Source: a virus
Taxonomy: Duplodnaviria; Caudoviricetes
Direction: 5' to 3' (one strand)
DNA: 26,145 nt
IMG/VR virus record: IMGVR_UViG_3300027571_000066
Span: 1 to 26,145 of that record
The position numbers were made by a program, and so were the translations under genes. Of this stretch, positions 10,743 to 24,673 are shown one piece after another (the stretch's first letter is position 1; each line of letters opens with the position of its first letter). The notes under the pieces are model-generated. The model was not told the origin of the DNA. It made no database searches and was given only the letters and a program-made list of their open reading frames with translations.

Positions 10743-12299
10743 TTATTCTTCAGCTTGCTGTTGTTGTGCAGCTTCAGTCATGCCTTTAATAGCAGGGGCT
10801 ACGCCCTTCTCTGCCATTGCCATCATTTGCTGTTGTTGCATCTGTTCTTGCATAGCTTGTTGTTCTTGCATCTTCTGCTCATCAGATTTCACAAGACCCT
10901 GTGTATCAATACCTAGCGATGCGCCAAGACGATCTAAGTAGTCTCCAATGTTTAACTCACTAGCAATAACTTGCTGTCCTAGTGGTTGTAGCATTTGTAA
11001 GAACTGGCTTAGTTTGTTTAAGTCCTGTCCACGACCAAGAGCTTCTAGACCAGTAACGATCTGTGGCTTCAAGGTGTCTTTAGGAAACTTAGGCATCTTA
11101 CCTTCTTTCTGCATCTTTGCTAGAAGGAGGTTGACTAGGGGAACTTGGAACTCTTGTGATAGTACAGAGTAAATGCCACCTAGAGCTGTCTCTAGCTCTT
11201 GTGCCATGTATCGTACTTCTTCTGCTGTTACTCTCTCAGCTTGTCGTTGAACAGAGCTGTTAAGTAGGAAGGCAAAAGATAAGCGTTCTGTAATCTTCTG
11301 CATTGTTTCTTGTGCTACTCTAAAGTCATTAAACTTATTGGCTTGTAAAGTAGTTACATCATTAGCATCACCAGAGACAATACCACCGTTAGGGGCATCT
11401 GCAATACTTCTCATCTTAGTCGTACCGTTTGGTCTTACTAAGAATAAGAGTTTAGCACTGGCAGCACTGCCTTCGACAATAGCTTTGGTTAATGCTTCTA
11501 GTGATTTTAAATCACCTACGATTTCTTCACAGAAAGAACGACCATAGTGGTTGCCATCAACAGCAATAAAGCGTAGTGCCATCCAAGGTAGTTTGTCTTC
11601 TGTGTAAGAACCTTTAGTGCTTTCAATTACATAGTCGTGTACTTCTTGATGCACTTCAAACTTCTTACCAACTTTTTTAATACAGGTAAAAATATCACAT
11701 TCTTTTTTACTGGTATCTAATTCATAGTCAGGGTTTTCTGTTAAAGCCTGTAAGACATCTTTAGGCAGCGCATCATACGCTACTGTTTCTTTGGTGATAA
11801 TCTTTAAGATGTTGCCCATCGTGTCTCGTTGGACAACGTAACGATCTAGTCTAAATACTTTCATTCCACCCTTGGGCGGCATATGGACTAAAGCGTTACC
11901 CGCTACTATTAATTGCTTAAGTGCCTCGAATGTTGGAACTCGAATGGCTTTTGATTCTATGACTTGTGTTGCTGATCTTTCAATACGAGCTAGTGCTTCT
12001 TCTGCCTTACCTCTGGCATCACCGCCTAACTCTACTAGATCATAATCATCTATAGTTAAACGAAAGAATGCTTGGTTAGGAGGGAGAAGGGTCATCAGTA
12101 GTTTAGAAGCAAGATTGTTTACACCTCTTGCACCCACTGACTGATAAGGGGTATTGTACTGAGTTGACCCTGTATGCCCTTCAGGGGGCATAAGTGTAGG
12201 GATTGTTAACTCCGCACAAGACCTCGCTCGTGTAAGAAAAGCATCACGATCTGCCGCCATGTTCTCATAAGCTTTGGCTATAGATTGATCGTGCATCAT
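10743..12299 (-). CDS. Head-tail connector (portal, T7 gp8-like)
   Basis: 518 aa. Motifs 'PYQSVGARGVNNLASKL', 'YGRS', 'ERVTAEEVR' and 'TGLEALGRGQD'. Confidence 0.97.
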   Translation of the reverse strand: MMHDQSIAKAYENMAADRDAFLTRARSCAELTIPTLMPPEGHTGSTQYNTPYQSVGARGVNNLASKLLMTLLPPNQAFFRLTIDDYDLVELGGDARGKAEEALARIERSATQVIESKAIRVPTFEALKQLIVAGNALVHMPPKGGMKVFRLDRYVVQRDTMGNILKIITKETVAYDALPKDVLQALTENPDYELDTSKKECDIFTCIKKVGKKFEVHQEVHDYVIESTKGSYTEDKLPWMALRFIAVDGNHYGRSFCEEIVGDLKSLEALTKAIVEGSAASAKLLFLVRPNGTTKMRSIADAPNGGIVSGDANDVTTLQANKFNDFRVAQETMQKITERLSFAFLLNSSVQRQAERVTAEEVRYMAQELETALGGIYSVLSQEFQVPLVNLLLAKMQKEGKMPKFPKDTLKPQIVTGLEALGRGQDLNKLSQFLQMLQPLGQQVIASELNIGDYLDRLGASLGIDTQGLVKSDEQKMQEQQAMQEQMQQQQMMAMAEKGVAPAIKGMTEAAQQQQAEE

Positions 12300-12717: not shown

Positions 12718-12736
12718 CTATAGGGGGTGGTTAGAG
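12718..12736 (-). promoter_or_regulatory. Phage RNA polymerase promoter for the structural module (CTCTAACCACCCCCTATAG)
   Basis: Identical 19-mer at 20943-20961; ends in CTATAG like T7-family promoters; intergenic at a module boundary. Confidence 0.85.
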
Positions 12737-12821: not shown

Positions 12822-14702
12822 CTATATTTCGCATGAACCTGACGAGCAAGCCAACTCCTGAGTTCCAGTAGTGGTGTCCTCTTTTTCATATTCACCTAGC
12901 CTGTCCCATTCAATCTCTGAAGGGGTCTCTCGTTTAAGTTCCATATACCTGTCCTTATCAATTGCTTCATAAGGAGCTTGAGCATACACATGGTCAGTGC
13001 GTGGTAGGAAGCTAATGCCTGAGCAGCTATCTAGTCGTTCCCATAGCCATTGTCCTGCCGCTAGGAACTCATCATCGGAGTAATATATAGTAACACTAGG
13101 TTTATGTTCACACCAATGTTCCTGATATATCTCCCACAAATCTAACTGTTGTTTGACGTTAAGTTCACTAACACAAGTTGCACCCTTGGGAGCTTTCACA
13201 GGGAAGTCAAACACGTAGTTCTCTGTGTTCATTACATCCTTCTCCCACGACACACCTGAGTCTTTTAGGAATGCAGAGATAGGGTCTTTCCCATCGCTAC
13301 GTACTCGTCTTATATAATAAGGAGAGAACCTAGCATGAATACCACTAGCACTGTCTACCAGTTGGGACACTGTACCTGACGGCTTCACACACGTAATAGC
13401 TGTCGATTGGTTAACACCTAACTCAGCCGCAAAGTGCTTGTTGGTTTGTACAGCAATCTTCTTCAGTTTCTCTAGTGTCTCTTTCAAGACAACAAGGCTA
13501 CCCTTACCAGATAACAACTTGTGATCCATGATGCCTGTCATACTTACACCAAGTAAACATTCTTCTTGTGTGTTGTTCTTCCAGACAGAGCGTACATACC
13601 TAAAGTCAGTTAGCGTTGACTGTAGCGTTCCTAAGATTGTTGCTAGTCGTGTCTTACGTTCTAAAGATTCTTGTGTGTCATCAGCACGTACTACAATCTC
13701 AGACAAGTTACATACCTGTGCAGAGCGTAGGATAATCTCACTACAGGGGTTAGTCCCAAAGTCGTGACCTATATCTCTACGTCCATTTCTCTCTGCTTGT
13801 TTCTTTGCAGCAGTACGGGAGAAGATACCTCGCTCCCCTGCTTTAGATTTATAGAGTGCTACCCATTCTTCCAGAAAGGTTTCATACTCTGGCTTCTCAT
13901 TGTAGACGGCACTGTTGTTTGCCAAGGCTCTTTGCGTTTGTGTCTCCCACCAATTCCCAGACTTCGCATGACGCATACGGTCATCAGACAAGTTAGATAG
14001 AGAGATGAGAGCAGACCTACGCACACCACCAACAACAACGATTTCAGCAATTTTACAAACAACGTCATGGCATTCAATACTCGTTAGCTTACGTCCAGCA
14101 GCGTTCTTGAAAGTAGAAACAGTAAACTCGAAAAGCCTAACCAAAGGATCAGCCCCGCTCGATCTACCACCAAATGTTTTAAGCCTTTCACCTTTAGCCC
14201 GTAACTTAGAGACATCCCAAGTAGGCACTTGACCCGAATACAAAAGACTAACCAACTCACGGAAAGCTTTAGCCCAACCAATTTTACTGTCTTGGACATG
14301 GATTGTAGTTTCTGTTTCATGGAACTCCTCACTGATTGTTGGTAACTTGGCTACAGACTGCCTCTCTACGGAGAAGCCTACACCTGTGCCACACATTAGT
14401 ACATAGAGTATCTCATCAAATACTCTGGGGTTATCTACGGCAACGTAGGAACAATTAAACCCTGCCATGTTGTCTCGCTTCAGTGCCTCACCCGCTGTCA
14501 TTAGACAACGCATGGATGGCATAATCTCTTGCTTGTAGATAGCATCAAAGAGTTCATACGCTAGTGTAGTATCTAACTGTCCTCGATCTACCCAGAAGTT
14601 AATGTACCGCTGTACAGTTTCCTTCCATGTCTCTCTTCTGTTATCTTCTTCCCGCCACCTAGCGTAACGGGATTTGTGTATGTATTGTTGATATGAATCC
14701 AT
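12822..14702 (-). CDS. nrdJ: Ribonucleotide reductase, class II (adenosylcobalamin-dependent, monomeric type)
   Basis: 626 aa. Motifs 'PSMR', 'FNCSY', 'GTGVGFSV', 'VVGGVRRSA', catalytic 'TNPCSEI', 'CVKPSGT' and C-terminal Cys pair 'ACSSGSCEI'. No ATP-cone and no beta-subunit gene nearby. Confidence 0.88.
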   Translation of the reverse strand: MDSYQQYIHKSRYARWREEDNRRETWKETVQRYINFWVDRGQLDTTLAYELFDAIYKQEIMPSMRCLMTAGEALKRDNMAGFNCSYVAVDNPRVFDEILYVLMCGTGVGFSVERQSVAKLPTISEEFHETETTIHVQDSKIGWAKAFRELVSLLYSGQVPTWDVSKLRAKGERLKTFGGRSSGADPLVRLFEFTVSTFKNAAGRKLTSIECHDVVCKIAEIVVVGGVRRSALISLSNLSDDRMRHAKSGNWWETQTQRALANNSAVYNEKPEYETFLEEWVALYKSKAGERGIFSRTAAKKQAERNGRRDIGHDFGTNPCSEIILRSAQVCNLSEIVVRADDTQESLERKTRLATILGTLQSTLTDFRYVRSVWKNNTQEECLLGVSMTGIMDHKLLSGKGSLVVLKETLEKLKKIAVQTNKHFAAELGVNQSTAITCVKPSGTVSQLVDSASGIHARFSPYYIRRVRSDGKDPISAFLKDSGVSWEKDVMNTENYVFDFPVKAPKGATCVSELNVKQQLDLWEIYQEHWCEHKPSVTIYYSDDEFLAAGQWLWERLDSCSGISFLPRTDHVYAQAPYEAIDKDRYMELKRETPSEIEWDRLGEYEKEDTTTGTQELACSSGSCEI

Positions 14703-15070
14703 TATCGGTCATCTCCTGAGCCTTGTAGCGTATCGTTAATCTTACGCTTGTATAGTTTGTTTAAATTATTAAATGCAATGTCACTCAGATTCAGTCCTGC
14801 TTCGTCTGTCAGCATGGCTAGATACCAGAACACATCTCCTAGCTCTGATGCTAATTGTTCTTTAAAGTTAGCTGGTTCTCCATCCCTAATCTTTTTCTTA
14901 ACCTTCCCTGCTACTTCACCAGCCTCACTTGCTAGACCCATAGTTAGATATACTAGCGATGAGTCTTTAGGGAAGACGGCTGTGGCGGCACACTTACTTT
15001 GATACCAGTCAAACCCTTCAAACATTCCTGTAATTTGTTCATAACTTGCTCCACCTAAATCGTTTCTCAT
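14702..15070 (-). CDS. MazG-like nucleotide pyrophosphohydrolase
   Basis: Likely start at MRNDLG (15070, ATGA overlap with the upstream gene); 122 aa. Motifs 'GLASEAGEV', 'ELGDVFWY', 'NLNKL..R' and 'GSGDDR'. Confidence 0.88.
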   Translation of the reverse strand: MRNDLGGASYEQITGMFEGFDWYQSKCAATAVFPKDSSLVYLTMGLASEAGEVAGKVKKKIRDGEPANFKEQLASELGDVFWYLAMLTDEAGLNLSDIAFNNLNKLYKRKINDTLQGSGDDR

Positions 15071-15348
15071 CCCCAGTTCTCCCCTTCGGTTTTTTCCATT
15101 AATTCGATCATCTTGTTTAAGTACCAGACAGCCTTCTTTGCATCTTGAATAGGCTTGCCTTTGTTCCAAAGCCTTGTGCTGGTGTATTTAATTACGTTAC
15201 CGTGACAATAGGAGATAGCATCAAACTCCCCTAGCACATCTACAATGTAATCTATTGTTTCTATCTTCCCTGCATTGTAATGCTCTGGGCTGTTGACAGG
15301 ATCAGCGGCTCTTTCTGTTACCTTAACTTCTGAAATTACTGCATCCAT
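15067..15348 (-). CDS. DUF3310 family protein (T7 gp1.7 nucleotide kinase-like)
   Basis: 93 aa with 'DPVNSPEHY...IETID...GNVIKY...DAKKAVWYL'. Confidence 0.88.
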   Translation of the reverse strand: MDAVISEVKVTERAADPVNSPEHYNAGKIETIDYIVDVLGEFDAISYCHGNVIKYTSTRLWNKGKPIQDAKKAVWYLNKMIELMEKTEGENWG

Positions 15349-20300: not shown

Positions 20301-20901
20301 CAGCAAAGACCTCGGTTGTTGATGAAGTTTCGGCATTAGCGGAGGGGGCTACGAAGCCATCTTCTTCATCGAACACACTTGAAGCTGAGTTACCATACTC
20401 AACCAAATCTATTACCTGTACTGCCTTTAGTCGTAGAGACACGCCTACCTTCTTGGTTGACTGCATCACGTAAGGGATAGGTTCAAACGCTACCTTTACC
20501 TTTGAGCCATTACCAATCAGCGTGTCACCTGTGAGTGGTGTCTTCTTCGCATCAAGCACAACAGGCTCTTGCTCATACCAACTGCCATCTCTCTTTTGGA
20601 CTTTAGCTTTTAGTTTGAATTTAAACTCTACGTTACCTGTAGGGTCTCCTGTGTCTCTGTCGTATACTACGGACATGACATCTTGTGTGGTCAGAGAGTT
20701 CTTAAGAGGTGGTTTCTCTTTAACTGCTTTCTTAAATGTCTCTTGAATTAGTTCCTCTAATTTCTCACACATTGGAGCGGCATCTGCTTCTGTCATTTGA
20801 AGATTGATACTGTAATCACCGTTTGGATTAAACTTTGTATCAGGCTCAAATACTTTCGCCCATGCTGCTTTTCCTTCTAATACTAAAATGTTCTTCGCCA
20901 T
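20284..20901 (-). CDS. Single-stranded DNA-binding protein (T7 gp2.5-like)
   Basis: 205 aa. Motifs 'PDTKFNPNGDY', 'IGNGS', 'GVSLRLKAVQVIDLVE' and an acidic tail ending in Phe. Confidence 0.92.
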   Translation of the reverse strand: MAKNILVLEGKAAWAKVFEPDTKFNPNGDYSINLQMTEADAAPMCEKLEELIQETFKKAVKEKPPLKNSLTTQDVMSVVYDRDTGDPTGNVEFKFKLKAKVQKRDGSWYEQEPVVLDAKKTPLTGDTLIGNGSKVKVAFEPIPYVMQSTKKVGVSLRLKAVQVIDLVEYGNSASSVFDEEDGFVAPSANAETSSTTEVFADAADF

Positions 20902-20942
20902 ATATTTATTATCCTATTAAGTTAAAGTTTATTCGGGGATTG

Positions 20943-20961
20943 CTATAGGGGGTGGTTAGAG
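20943..20961 (-). promoter_or_regulatory. Phage RNA polymerase promoter for the replication module (CTCTAACCACCCCCTATAG)
   Basis: Identical to 12718-12736; begins 2 nt after the RNAP stop codon and lies upstream of SSB. Confidence 0.85.
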
Positions 20962-20963
20962 AA

Positions 20964-22622
20964 TTAAGCAAAAAAGTAATCACTCTGTAGCACCTCCTCA
21001 ATGTTTAAAGTTCCCCGTGGTGGAGGTTCAGGTATTTCTGTACCCTCCGTTAACGTACTTACTGCGCTATCGTAGAGATTTTGCAGTACATCGTTATCTC
21101 TATACATCTCAACAAACGCTTCTCTTAACTTATCGTTAAGTTTCACCATGTTGGGACTGTGTGTGCCATAGCTGTCGTGTACCATAGCAAAGTCTGTTAT
21201 GCCTTCCTTCAAACACTTATCGACTGTGAACGTCAAAGCCGCAGCATCTAGGCTATGTGTGAAGTTAGGACTAGCACCGCTAACACTCTTGCGTGAGTCT
21301 ACTGTCTTCTCTAGTGGCTGTCTGTAGTTCAGCTTAACTGTAGAACCGCTTAAGTGTGTCCAGATGCGTAGCTTCTTGGTGTTACTGTACGACTGTCTCA
21401 CTAATAACCCTGTTGGTGTCTCCCACTCAAAGGGTCTGCCCTGCTTACTGTACAACTTTGCAATGCTCTTGATGTAGTCCATTACTTTATGAGCCGAGAC
21501 AATAACCTCATTGATGGCTTTCCAGACAAACTTAGCCAAGTATGTGGCTGGTTGCCAGAAGTCATCACCCCAAGGGTTGTTGCCCTTACATTTTTCTTCC
21601 AGTGCTTCCAGTATGTAGTCTCTACAACTGTGTTGTGTCCCTGAGTAGGGTACAATCATCACAGGTCTCTTACATATCTTTCTACACACACCAATGTTTA
21701 GTAGCTCAGTGGCTAGTGTTGTACCTTCTTGCTGTAACAGTTCCGTTGTTCTCTTTGCTACATCCGTGTAAATGTCTTGAGGTGTAGCGTGTGGTGTTAG
21801 GTTTACTGCCTTACCACCCTCAAGGTCTCTGAGCATTGCTGAGAGGTGTTGTAAGCCATTGCACGAGCCATCACTAGCACAGGGTAGGTGCGTTTCGAAA
21901 TGCTCCCCAAACTGTCTAGCGTTGCTGTACAATGCCCACTCGTAACACCATGCAAGTGCTTGCCAAGGTTTATCTGCTTCCTGCCACCATCTGTTAGACA
22001 AAGGATCGTTATAAACATCGACAGCGTTATCTACGTTCATGTACGCCCACATCTCTCGATCTTCTAAACTTACCTTATCTACTCCAAATACATTAGCACC
22101 ATGTATAGCCAACCACTTAGCTTCCTCATCGTTTGTGATATTAGCTGGGTTAGCAAACTCTAGTAGTGCTTTACTGTAGTCTGCATTTTGTGGTGAAAGG
22201 AAAGACTCTACAGGATACTTACGACCCCTGAAGTCTAACTGCCATACATACCACATATTCTCTATGTCTTTATACTGTTCGGCAAGTTGAATAGTACGCT
22301 CTACCTGAATCCGTTTGGACATAGACTTATTGTTGTAGCTGTGTATCTTGTTACGCTCTGACTTAAATGCCTTAAAGACTGCTGTCTCCTCATCGTTAAG
22401 GTATTTAGGTTCTTTACTAAAAGGATACTTAGGCAATGCTAAGTTATCTCTTGGTGGTAAACCTTCCCATGACTGACCACTGTCCCAACACTGACGTAGG
22501 GTATCGACAACAAACTCATTGATACGCCAAGGTGTTCTCTGTAGTGCGTTAACACACTGGTACTCTAGAGACAGGTCACGGTCTTTCAGAGCATTGATGT
22601 AATCTTGTGCTGTCTGTCTCAT
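20964..22622 (-). CDS. T7-type RNA polymerase, C-terminal catalytic fragment
   Basis: 552 aa with 'DFRGR', motif A 'DGSCNGLQH', motif B 'RKICKRPVMIVPY', 'PNFTHSLDA', motif C 'VHDSYG' and C-terminal 'YFFA'. GAGG SD upstream of the ATG. Confidence 0.93.
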   Translation of the reverse strand: MRQTAQDYINALKDRDLSLEYQCVNALQRTPWRINEFVVDTLRQCWDSGQSWEGLPPRDNLALPKYPFSKEPKYLNDEETAVFKAFKSERNKIHSYNNKSMSKRIQVERTIQLAEQYKDIENMWYVWQLDFRGRKYPVESFLSPQNADYSKALLEFANPANITNDEEAKWLAIHGANVFGVDKVSLEDREMWAYMNVDNAVDVYNDPLSNRWWQEADKPWQALAWCYEWALYSNARQFGEHFETHLPCASDGSCNGLQHLSAMLRDLEGGKAVNLTPHATPQDIYTDVAKRTTELLQQEGTTLATELLNIGVCRKICKRPVMIVPYSGTQHSCRDYILEALEEKCKGNNPWGDDFWQPATYLAKFVWKAINEVIVSAHKVMDYIKSIAKLYSKQGRPFEWETPTGLLVRQSYSNTKKLRIWTHLSGSTVKLNYRQPLEKTVDSRKSVSGASPNFTHSLDAAALTFTVDKCLKEGITDFAMVHDSYGTHSPNMVKLNDKLREAFVEMYRDNDVLQNLYDSAVSTLTEGTEIPEPPPRGTLNIEEVLQSDYFFA

Positions 22623-23401
22623 GCGTGTACCCTCACAAATGGCAAGTTGTTTATGTGTTCAGAGTAGTAACCACCACCCCAGAATGAATCCCAATCCTTT
22701 GGCTCGATAATACAAGGGCAATACCTTGGTAGTGCTACCTCGTTAGTCTCGTTAAACGCTTTGATCCACTCCTCTGTCTCTTGCGTTGGTACTACATGAT
22801 AAATGGTTTTCCTTTTCTGTATCTTCTTCTCCAGTTTAACAATACCTGTAGCAGTAATGATTAGATCAACCAGTTTAATACCCACGTTAATACGTTCCTG
22901 ACTTGTCCATGTAGGTAGGTCAACACCGTCACTATTAATCTTGTGGTCGAGACCGTAACGCTTGTGTAAGAAACCTTTATCTGATTTCTTGTTAGCTTCC
23001 TTGATCATGTTGGTAGCTACTTCCTTGTCTATCTGTAACCAGACATCTAATCTTTTCTGCGTTTCAATTTGTATACCAATGGTTCGACAAACTTTTAATA
23101 GCGTACCATTGTTTGCTAGGCTGTCGATCAAACATACTAAAGCTAGATAAGCTACCTTACCCGCATCCATACCCTTGAGTAAACTTTTGGATGTACTTCG
23201 GTTGTATCGTTTATCTACCTTACAGTGTTCTTCTATAGCCTCTTGTACAGGGTCAAGGATACCTTTGATAATGGTTCTACCATGCTTAGTCTTTGACCCT
23301 AATTCCTTTCCCAATAAATCCTGTAACTGCTTGTGGTAACGATCAATCCCTGACTGCACCATCTGATACTCTAGGTCTATCTGTTCTTCCAATGTTGCCA
23401 T
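22619..23401 (-). CDS. T7-type RNA polymerase, N-terminal domain fragment
   Basis: Likely start at MATLEE (23401, AAGGAGG SD); 260 aa. C-terminus 'PRYCPCIIEPKDWDSFWGGGYY...LPFVRVHA' aligns by eye with T7 RNAP 'PMFQPCVVPPKPWTGITGGGYW...LALVRTHS' (residues ~266-301). Confidence 0.9.
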   Translation of the reverse strand: MATLEEQIDLEYQMVQSGIDRYHKQLQDLLGKELGSKTKHGRTIIKGILDPVQEAIEEHCKVDKRYNRSTSKSLLKGMDAGKVAYLALVCLIDSLANNGTLLKVCRTIGIQIETQKRLDVWLQIDKEVATNMIKEANKKSDKGFLHKRYGLDHKINSDGVDLPTWTSQERINVGIKLVDLIITATGIVKLEKKIQKRKTIYHVVPTQETEEWIKAFNETNEVALPRYCPCIIEPKDWDSFWGGGYYSEHINNLPFVRVHA

Positions 23402-23548
23402 AATGCCTCCTTTTGGGACACGTATTAGTTTTACTGTGGCTTTACTCATAACTACCTACGTTAGCGGAGCAAAGGATTATGTGGAATGTGTTACTCATTA
23501 TCATCTTTTGTTAATCTTGTTACGGTGGCGTGATAAGGTTTCATGGGC

Positions 23549-23586
<38 letters not shown>

Positions 23587-23630
23587 ATCTAGGTTTTGAG
23601 CCATTCTTGAAATCTTTAACACGCCACTTC

Positions 23631-23660
23631 GGACACTTTAGGACACTTAAGGACACAAGC
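23631..23660. repeat. Three tandem 10-bp units (GGACACTTTA, GGACACTTAA, GGACACAAGC); putative integrase arm sites
   Basis: Directly visible between integrase stop and att core. A fourth GGACAC is at 23416-23421 on the other side of the core. Confidence 0.75.
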
Positions 23661-24673
23661 TAATCTTCAAGTAAATTAGACCCACCAACCATAGTTGACG
23701 TATCCCATTTAGCATACTTGAGAGTGGTTGCAATATTTTTATGACCCATGTAACGCATGATGTTAGCAGTGTCCCAACCCTTCTCTGTTAGCCTTGTTGC
23801 TGTCGTATGTCTCCAAGTGTGCCAACACTTTTTAGTAAGACCTAAACCATCTCTCACCCTGTCCCAAGCTAGTCTGTGCTTGTACAATGGATCGTTAAAA
23901 GTCTTACGTTTGCGTAGTACCTCCTCTACTCTTTTAGTTATAGGCATCAGTAGTGGTTCACCGTTCTTTCTGTCTGGTATGTAAGCACCATACATCTGAG
24001 AACCATCAGCTCTAGTTTGCTGTAGCTTGATAAGATTATCCCCATCAATCTTCAACACCTCAGAAGCCCTCATGCCTGTGTCTACTGCCACGATAGCATA
24101 GTCACGTAGGTAATCTTCACCTAACCTCTCAAACTCGCTTAGAATGGCATTCTCTTCGTCCTTAGAGAAGTATTCAATACGTTCCCTACCTTTCTCACTC
24201 TGCCGTTTAAACTTCGGTACAGAAGTAAGTGCGCCTTCGTCTACCGCATTATCTAAACACTTTTTAAGACAAGATATGTGTCTGTTAACAGTAGATGGAG
24301 CATATCCTTGGTTCTCACGCATCCATCTGATCCAGTCAAACACTGTAGTAGTGCTGATACGATTGATGGGTGACTTCTCGCCCCAGTATTTACAGACAAT
24401 ACTCTGAATAAACATAACCTGTCGCTCATTCTTTGTATTAGCCCAGTAGTTCTCATGGCAACGATCAAACGCATAGCGTAACGTCCACCCTGATGCCTTA
24501 CCAGTCTCTCTGTTAACTTCCATAGCTGTGGGCATATTCCCTTGGGCTATCTCCCTTTGCCACATTGCCTCCAGTACAGTAGCATCTTCCTTAGTGGAGA
24601 GAGTTCGCCTGAACTTCTTCCCTTTGTATGTAACATAGGCTTCCCACCCGTTACCTCTTTGATTAACACTCAT
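23660..24673 (-). CDS. int: Tyrosine recombinase (phage integrase)
   Basis: 337 aa. Catalytic R in 'DTGMRASE', K in 'DRKNG', 'HTWRH', 'MGH...TLKY'; N-terminal arm-binding-like beta region. Confidence 0.93.
   Translation of the reverse strand: MSVNQRGNGWEAYVTYKGKKFRRTLSTKEDATVLEAMWQREIAQGNMPTAMEVNRETGKASGWTLRYAFDRCHENYWANTKNERQVMFIQSIVCKYWGEKSPINRISTTTVFDWIRWMRENQGYAPSTVNRHISCLKKCLDNAVDEGALTSVPKFKRQSEKGRERIEYFSKDEENAILSEFERLGEDYLRDYAIVAVDTGMRASEVLKIDGDNLIKLQQTRADGSQMYGAYIPDRKNGEPLLMPITKRVEEVLRKRKTFNDPLYKHRLAWDRVRDGLGLTKKCWHTWRHTTATRLTEKGWDTANIMRYMGHKNIATTLKYAKWDTSTMVGGSNLLED

Follow-up and report, generated by a model that had tools for sequence, protein, structure and literature searches.

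The window, that is, the whole stretch of DNA analyzed here (26,145 nucleotides), is a 26-kb record of a marine T7-like phage and is about 64% complete. Its minus strand codes for an integrase, a single-stranded DNA (ssDNA)-binding protein, endonuclease I, a primase-helicase, a DNA polymerase, and the portal, capsid and tail proteins. The T7-type enzyme is the textbook example of a one-chain RNA polymerase; in the window it is encoded by two genes, termed N and C below. The relevant features are as follows.

10743-12299, minus strand: portal gene
12718..12736, minus strand: second copy of the promoter (a perfect 19-mer), ahead of the head-gene block
20943..20961, minus strand: T7-type phage promoter, perfect copy, just after the C stop and ahead of the ssDNA-binding protein gene
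20964..22622, minus strand: C gene, 552 aa, with thumb, palm, fingers, catalytic motifs and specificity loop (T7 ~302-883; Pfam PF00940 RNA_pol)
21318..21380, minus strand: specificity loop, C residues 415-435, in which W421 corresponds to T7 N748 (alignment to T7)
22619..22634, minus strand: junction, with GAGG inside the N coding sequence followed by an ATGA stop/start overlap (from the sequence; kept in the clade)
22622..22729, minus strand: N residues 225-260 (T7 P266-S301), predicted anchor on the C subunit (conservation and co-fold)
22619..23401, minus strand: N gene, 260 aa, with the promoter-binding N-terminal domain and the whole C-linker (T7 ~30-301; Pfam PF14700 RPOL_N)
23406..23411, minus strand: AGGAGG, Shine-Dalgarno-like sequence of the N gene, 4 nt upstream of the ATG at 23401 (from the sequence)
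23549..23587, minus strand: likely attP core, the 5' half of a tRNA-Phe-like sequence located between the integrase and N genes (from the sequence)
23660..24673, minus strand: tyrosine integrase (Pfam PF00589), without counterpart in several split-bearing relatives

The N and C open reading frames overlap at the ATGA (22619-22622), and the GAGG (22631-22634) lies 8 nt ahead of the C ATG. The N gene starts at the ATG at 23401; an alternative start at 23449 gives a longer product (276 aa) and is not the conserved start. N aligns with T7 residues 34-300 and C, by profile, with residues 298-883, and their ranges on PHROG 414 are contiguous (positions 2-267 and 266-816). The catalytic residues checked are all located in C, where D130/R134 correspond to T7 D421/R425, D251 to D537, R314/K318/Y326 to R627/K631/Y639, H482/D483 to H811/D812, and F551 to F882. 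C carries the DxxGR, A, B and C motifs and the C-terminal aromatic tail of an Autographiviridae T7-type RNA polymerase, and the repeated cognate promoters and the T7-type gene neighbourhood are also those of an Autographiviridae polymerase; the single polypeptide expected of such an enzyme is replaced here by two genes. The promoter 19-mer occurs twice in the window, against 0.01 occurrences expected by chance. Two claims of a sequence-only reading of this DNA, that the catalytic motifs are intact and that two perfect promoters are present, are thus upheld by the residue-by-residue alignment to T7 and by this count. Its remark that ATGA coupling is common to ordinary gene pairs holds as well: in four other pairs of the window an ATGA lies in frame at the upstream stop.

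Several further observations concern the gene context. Positions 12822-15169 contain genes for a ribonucleotide reductase of class II (B12-dependent type) and for MazG-like proteins. The T7-type lysozyme gene is absent between endonuclease and primase in the window, and the pelagiphages fetched have one there. The coding strand at positions 1-2887 is without a long open reading frame, in a region expected to carry the continuation of the internal virion protein genes. No tRNA was detected in the window by ARAGORN, Rfam gave no match at E up to 1 for positions 20800-24000, and scans for sigma-70 promoters and terminators remained at chance level. Two RNA-library runs covered the whole stretch evenly, and coverage of this kind is no proof of transcription.

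Relatives were collected by three IMG/VR scans, the third of which comprised the best 80 of 536 stretches, and from six GenBank regions. Among the matches listed, 157 loci comprise 145 with a split polymerase, five with a fused one and seven with one half only. The IMG/VR loci represent 99 contigs (distinct contigs, counted by hand) among the matches listed, with 89 split at the window's site, four fused and six with one half; the loci are related to one another, so that such counts are inflated and independence is overstated. The sequence-only reading had raised the possibility of a single-base sequencing deletion, with the break position in relatives as one check. Of the 93 distinct IMG/VR contigs with both halves among the matches listed, 89 break at the window's site, with N identities of 52-100%, and the four fused contigs are distant (43% identical in C and 30% in N). 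Lengths of 256-279 aa are shared by 81 of the 86 N relatives in the protein collection (143-455 aa searched), and a search of longer proteins with N gave one match, at 23% identity, among 1155 candidates. The C relatives behave similarly: with fused lengths allowed in the search, the 120 best comprise 115 proteins of 552-559 aa and five shorter ones. More distant stand-alone N proteins likewise end near T7 300-304.

A break due to sequencing or assembly error, or one that marks a dead gene, is scarcely tenable in view of these data. In a single contig the loss of one base would look alike, and two loci (L105 and L121) do carry additional private frameshifts 170-200 codons into C, which are most likely assembly errors. 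Yet the identical break recurs in 89 contigs among the matches listed, down to 52% identity, and in assembled Logan contigs from all four runs that were checked the junction is bridged with no indel. Both halves are under purifying selection, as dN/dS is 0.03-0.09 in N and C in 9 informative of 10 close comparisons against the window. The promoter covaries with the specificity loop (see below). G001, a complete relative that has terminal repeats, carries three cognate promoter sites, and no second polymerase was found among its 39 open reading frames scanned. The recurrent break and the bridged junction exclude the sequencing-deletion alternative, and the window contains a naturally occurring, conserved two-gene polymerase.

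Some proteins at the margins of the clade deserve mention. P0213 (790 aa) and P0216 (808 aa), each from one contig, are fused polymerases that branch at the base of the split clade or within it. P0236 (271 aa) and P0272 (263 aa) are stand-alone N-domain proteins outside both split groups in the N tree, and are possibly further independent fissions, or fragments. The phage collection searched holds no cultured member of the window's clade, the best matches being about 40% identical. A species-genome scan for a host returned 18 loci, all 23-33% identical and none in the split clade; 17 of these read as one frame and one is degraded. One C relative is labelled Porticoccaceae in a metagenome-assembled genome, which is too weak for naming the host.

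The form of the junction bears on how the two halves are translated. In the 89 contigs, 80 junctions have a 4-nt overlap (79 ATGA, 1 GTGA), four read TGATG, four have an 8-nt gap and one (L034), possibly a misassembly, shows a gap of 19 nt together with a short duplication. Wherever the overlap is 4 nt, the TGA is preceded by A (79) or G (1), which yields a start codon. The -4, -1 and +8 junctions (88 of the 89 contigs) all place C in the -1 frame, and a hairpin, seen without a shuffle control, can form downstream of the window junction; both would suit a programmed -1 frameshift that yields a fused polymerase and leaves free N as a by-product. Such a frameshift is nevertheless very unlikely. 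A slippery heptamer occurs in only 1 of 60 distinct gene pairs, so that the conserved heptamer of a programmed -1 frameshift is lacking, and the open -1 frame through the junction that such a frameshift requires is interrupted in L145. All 80 of the -4 overlaps keep a start codon, and in L145 a TAA stands directly ahead of the C start in the C frame, so that no -1 shift can join the chains. A fused chain would also hold about five more linker residues than T7 or P0213.

Selection at the C start argues against frameshifting as well. Mean Shine-Dalgarno pairing is -5.4 kcal/mol at C starts, compared to -1.6 kcal/mol at internal ATGs (60 vs 686), using a generic anti-Shine-Dalgarno motif. The junction codon is AGG in 50 of 60 pairs, compared to 190 of 753 for the other arginine codons of N, and is under selection. 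The set used for the Shine-Dalgarno, heptamer and dN/dS comparisons left out L145, L148-150 (C of 544 aa), L034, L105, L121 and incomplete pairs. The junction variants (GTGA, TGATG and the 8-nt gap with an in-frame stop) point to separate translation over frameshifting. Ribosomes that stop at the TGA would presumably restart at the overlapping ATG, and the Shine-Dalgarno-like sequence in the last N codons may aid this restart.

The position of the cut is structurally meaningful. Alignment to T7 confirms that the break falls at the 301/302 seam, near the boundary between the N-terminal and polymerase domains, as the sequence-only reading had placed it by eye. Its statement that engineered T7 polymerase tolerates bisection there agrees with the legend of Supplementary Fig. 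S3 and the source data of Segall-Shapiro 2014 (PMC4299498). In that work random bisection of T7 polymerase revealed a narrow seam at 301-302, and the enzyme cut at 301 or 302 is active when the fragments are co-expressed; the mean signal of the 301 and 302 cuts was 793 and 530 units, vs 2488 at residue 179, so that the 301 cut gives about a third of the 179-cut signal. In T7 the C-linker spans residues 251-296, with a hinge near P266 (PMC3961267). P225 of N is the counterpart of P266, and since N keeps this residue and ends at T7 301, the hinge stays within one chain.

Residues 225-260 are the most conserved stretch of N (column conservation 0.80 vs 0.65 for residues 1-224). The N model matches the T7 N-terminal domain fold with a TM of 0.79-0.81; as a monomer it resembles the T7 elongation conformation, which is taken as the model's preference and does not count as evidence. 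Co-folding of N and C gave a score of 0.82, while the best of three controls reached 0.00; among solved complexes 116 of 157 attain the mark used, and among mismatched pairs 2 of 215 do so. The runs share at least 57% of contacts, with a partner pLDDT of at least 70, and the closest predicted contacts set N 225-260 on C residues 1-32 and 98-142. The two halves of a split gene tend to pass such a test via their likeness to solved T7 structures, and the co-fold thus shows likeness rather than binding. The heterodimer of N and C that the sequence-only reading proposed is the most likely state of the two proteins.

Split polymerases in T7-like phages are already in print. According to Chen 2019 (PMC6811365, 10.1101/672428), the polymerase genes of group III pelagiphages are all in two fragments except in HTVC011P, and the interruption is not recent; the paper devotes three sentences to the split, without mapping or test. 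A literature search for the window's clade or this cut, mainly in open-access sources, returned only this work. GenBank holds split polymerases from Gjalp, Eyrgjafa, HTVC041P, HTVC025P, MedDCM-OCT-S30-C28 and KM23-C739. The HTVC019Pvirus group III (HTVC025P, uv-Fonsiphage-EPL) resembles the window in having two genes cut at the boundary between the N-terminal domain and the catalytic body, and in its gene neighbourhood. The two groups differ in the details, however. The group III C chain begins close to T7 292, some 10 residues ahead of the window cut, so that the strand T7 293-300 belongs to C in group III and to N in the window; group III N proteins are 298-329 aa as annotated, compared to 260 aa; and group III junctions are 20-32 nt overlaps, a 1-nt gap or inserted genes, in contrast to ATGA. 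Identity between the window and group III is about 25% for N and 35% for C.

A single clade of group III and the window's group was rejected even when two fused proteins were allowed inside it (AU p = 0.008; C tree, LG+G4, quick search, 45 rows, no mixture model). The N tree likewise separates the two groups, with weak deep support. These trees suggest that the two splits probably arose independently. HTVC011P groups among the split pelagiphages, and a clade of the split ones that excludes it is rejected (AU p = 0.0003). Within its single 880-aa open reading frame, at L153:3945-3990, the internal start of the C gene of its split relatives and the codons that follow are preserved in a different frame, and the sequence is one base shorter there than in HTVC041P. 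Nested position and out-of-frame internal start together indicate that this single frame is likely a natural re-fusion or a record error. In HTVC025P, two small genes of 48 and 85 aa lie between the polymerase halves (L154:3921-4419).

Coliphage N4 provides another two-subunit relative. Its RNAPII is a proven heterodimer of gp15 (269 aa) and gp16 (404 aa; PDB 6DT7), 673 aa in total compared to 812 in the window, and as in the window the two subunits cover non-overlapping parts of T7 polymerase (PMC4496689). The N4 cut, however, falls after the thumb and DxxGR motif (PMC4496689), which are thus part of the first subunit in N4 and of the C subunit in the window; it maps close to C residue 165 of the window, some 160 residues further on, according to PHROG 2051, weak PDB matches and the same review. 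N4 RNAPII depends on gp2 and on an AT-rich -7/+2 promoter, and it is found alongside a virion polymerase, whereas the window has T7-type promoters and a T7 gene set. No giant virion RNA polymerase was seen in the fetched stretches of G001, where the largest open reading frame is 1088 aa; the window itself is about 64% complete. The window polymerase falls outside the N4 RNAPII family. It is like T7 in fold, catalytic residues and promoter type, and its cut equals the engineered 301/302 cut within a few residues of alignment error. T7 polymerase is one chain in nature, while the window's cut is genomic and clade-wide, and the C protein of the window has an evolved start site and about five additional N-terminal residues compared to T7.

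The proposal that N is a separable subunit for specificity or for lysis-lysogeny control can be weighed against the promoters. A related promoter motif is found at the corresponding place after C in relatives. In T7, the N748D substitution changes the preferred promoter to that of T3 (PMC11477551). Across 32 chosen split loci, lysine or arginine at the T7-748 position is accompanied by G at -11 or -10; 17 loci have the two features and 13 lack the two, so that 30 follow this rule. The trait was selected after viewing the alignment. The T7-748 column is the best of either subunit, with two errors vs six for the best N column. Automatic promoter placement was poor in 4 of the 32 (L016, L018, L108 and L151), and both exceptions are among these. 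When only independent pairs are considered, four of five agree with the rule and none disagrees (p = 0.125). L008 has C/C at -11/-10 together with Asp, as in the T3 rule.

Tyrosine integrase and likely attP lie just upstream of N in the window, and other contigs have tRNA-like loose ends that start at 23549. In pelagiphages attP sits between integrase and polymerase (Zhao 2018, 10.1101/410191). Relatives have other tRNA halves at the corresponding place. After integration at the tRNA-Phe-like site, the host tRNA promoter would point to the polymerase genes. A metagenome scan for the attachment junction returned eight loci, all in the phage (attP) form. An integrase match lies upstream in 39 of the 52 loci with enough upstream DNA, and N evolves about 1.3 times as fast as C. 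Both observations, the integrase and likely attP in the window, and the non-adjacent halves of HTVC025P would fit a regulatory N, the supply or exchange of which switches transcription, for example between lysis and lysogeny.

This role is, however, quite improbable. The ATGA overlap in the window leaves no space for separate control, and the specificity loop, whose T7-748 residue tracks promoter positions -11/-10 in 30 of the 32 loci, is located in C. Trees of N and C from 58 pairs share 19 strong splits and show no strongly supported conflict. Tyrosine integrase was found by Pfam and protein search in none of the three split-bearing genomes that are 98-100% complete, while the positive control has one; as complete genomes without integrase keep the split, it does not track lysogeny. 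Thus, that part of the earlier interpretation which saw a possible regulatory or specificity role for N is not sustained, while a natural, conserved two-gene polymerase, and the likely heterodimer, stand. A related idea sees the fission as put to use and not just tolerated: N would be a sigma-like initiation subunit able to dissociate, so that it could be kept in short supply, swapped or let go, and the recurrent fission at this seam (with the likely re-fusion in HTVC011P) would represent selected shifts between one and two chains. This idea appears unlikely, if slightly less so.

The polymerase of the window, conserved as two genes with intact catalytic residues, cognate promoters and selection on both halves, is probably made by coupled but separate translation of N and C, and the sequence comparisons and models suggest that these form one constitutive heterodimer which would act like single-chain T7 polymerase. 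With the cut after the C-linker, the rotation hinge of the N-terminal domain would remain within the N chain; N 225-260 is predicted to grip C at its first helix and its DxxGR strand; and promoter choice would be made mainly by the specificity loop in C. HTVC025P, with its halves parted by two small genes, counts in favor of this explanation, although it represents another lineage with another cut. Counted against it are P0213 and P0216, fused yet at the base of or inside the clade, and the weaker signal of the engineered T7 301 cut compared to the 179 cut. The fission is probably best seen as a change tolerated at a seam where the structure permits it, not as a means of regulation, and marine T7-like phages have likely arrived at it at least twice.

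The window and 32 related loci form a natural set of orthogonal promoter-polymerase pairs, and for synthetic biology the clade is a source of evolved split polymerases whose promoters vary and are linked to the loop by a readable rule. A large marine clade keeps a two-piece polymerase at the bisection seam, so that a seam known from engineering is in use in nature, and the cut of the second lineage, some 10 residues away, suggests convergence. According to a review of N4 (PMC4496689), the origin and the advantage of a heterodimeric enzyme relative to a single-chain one are unclear; the cultured split and fused near relatives HTVC041P and HTVC011P make this question testable.
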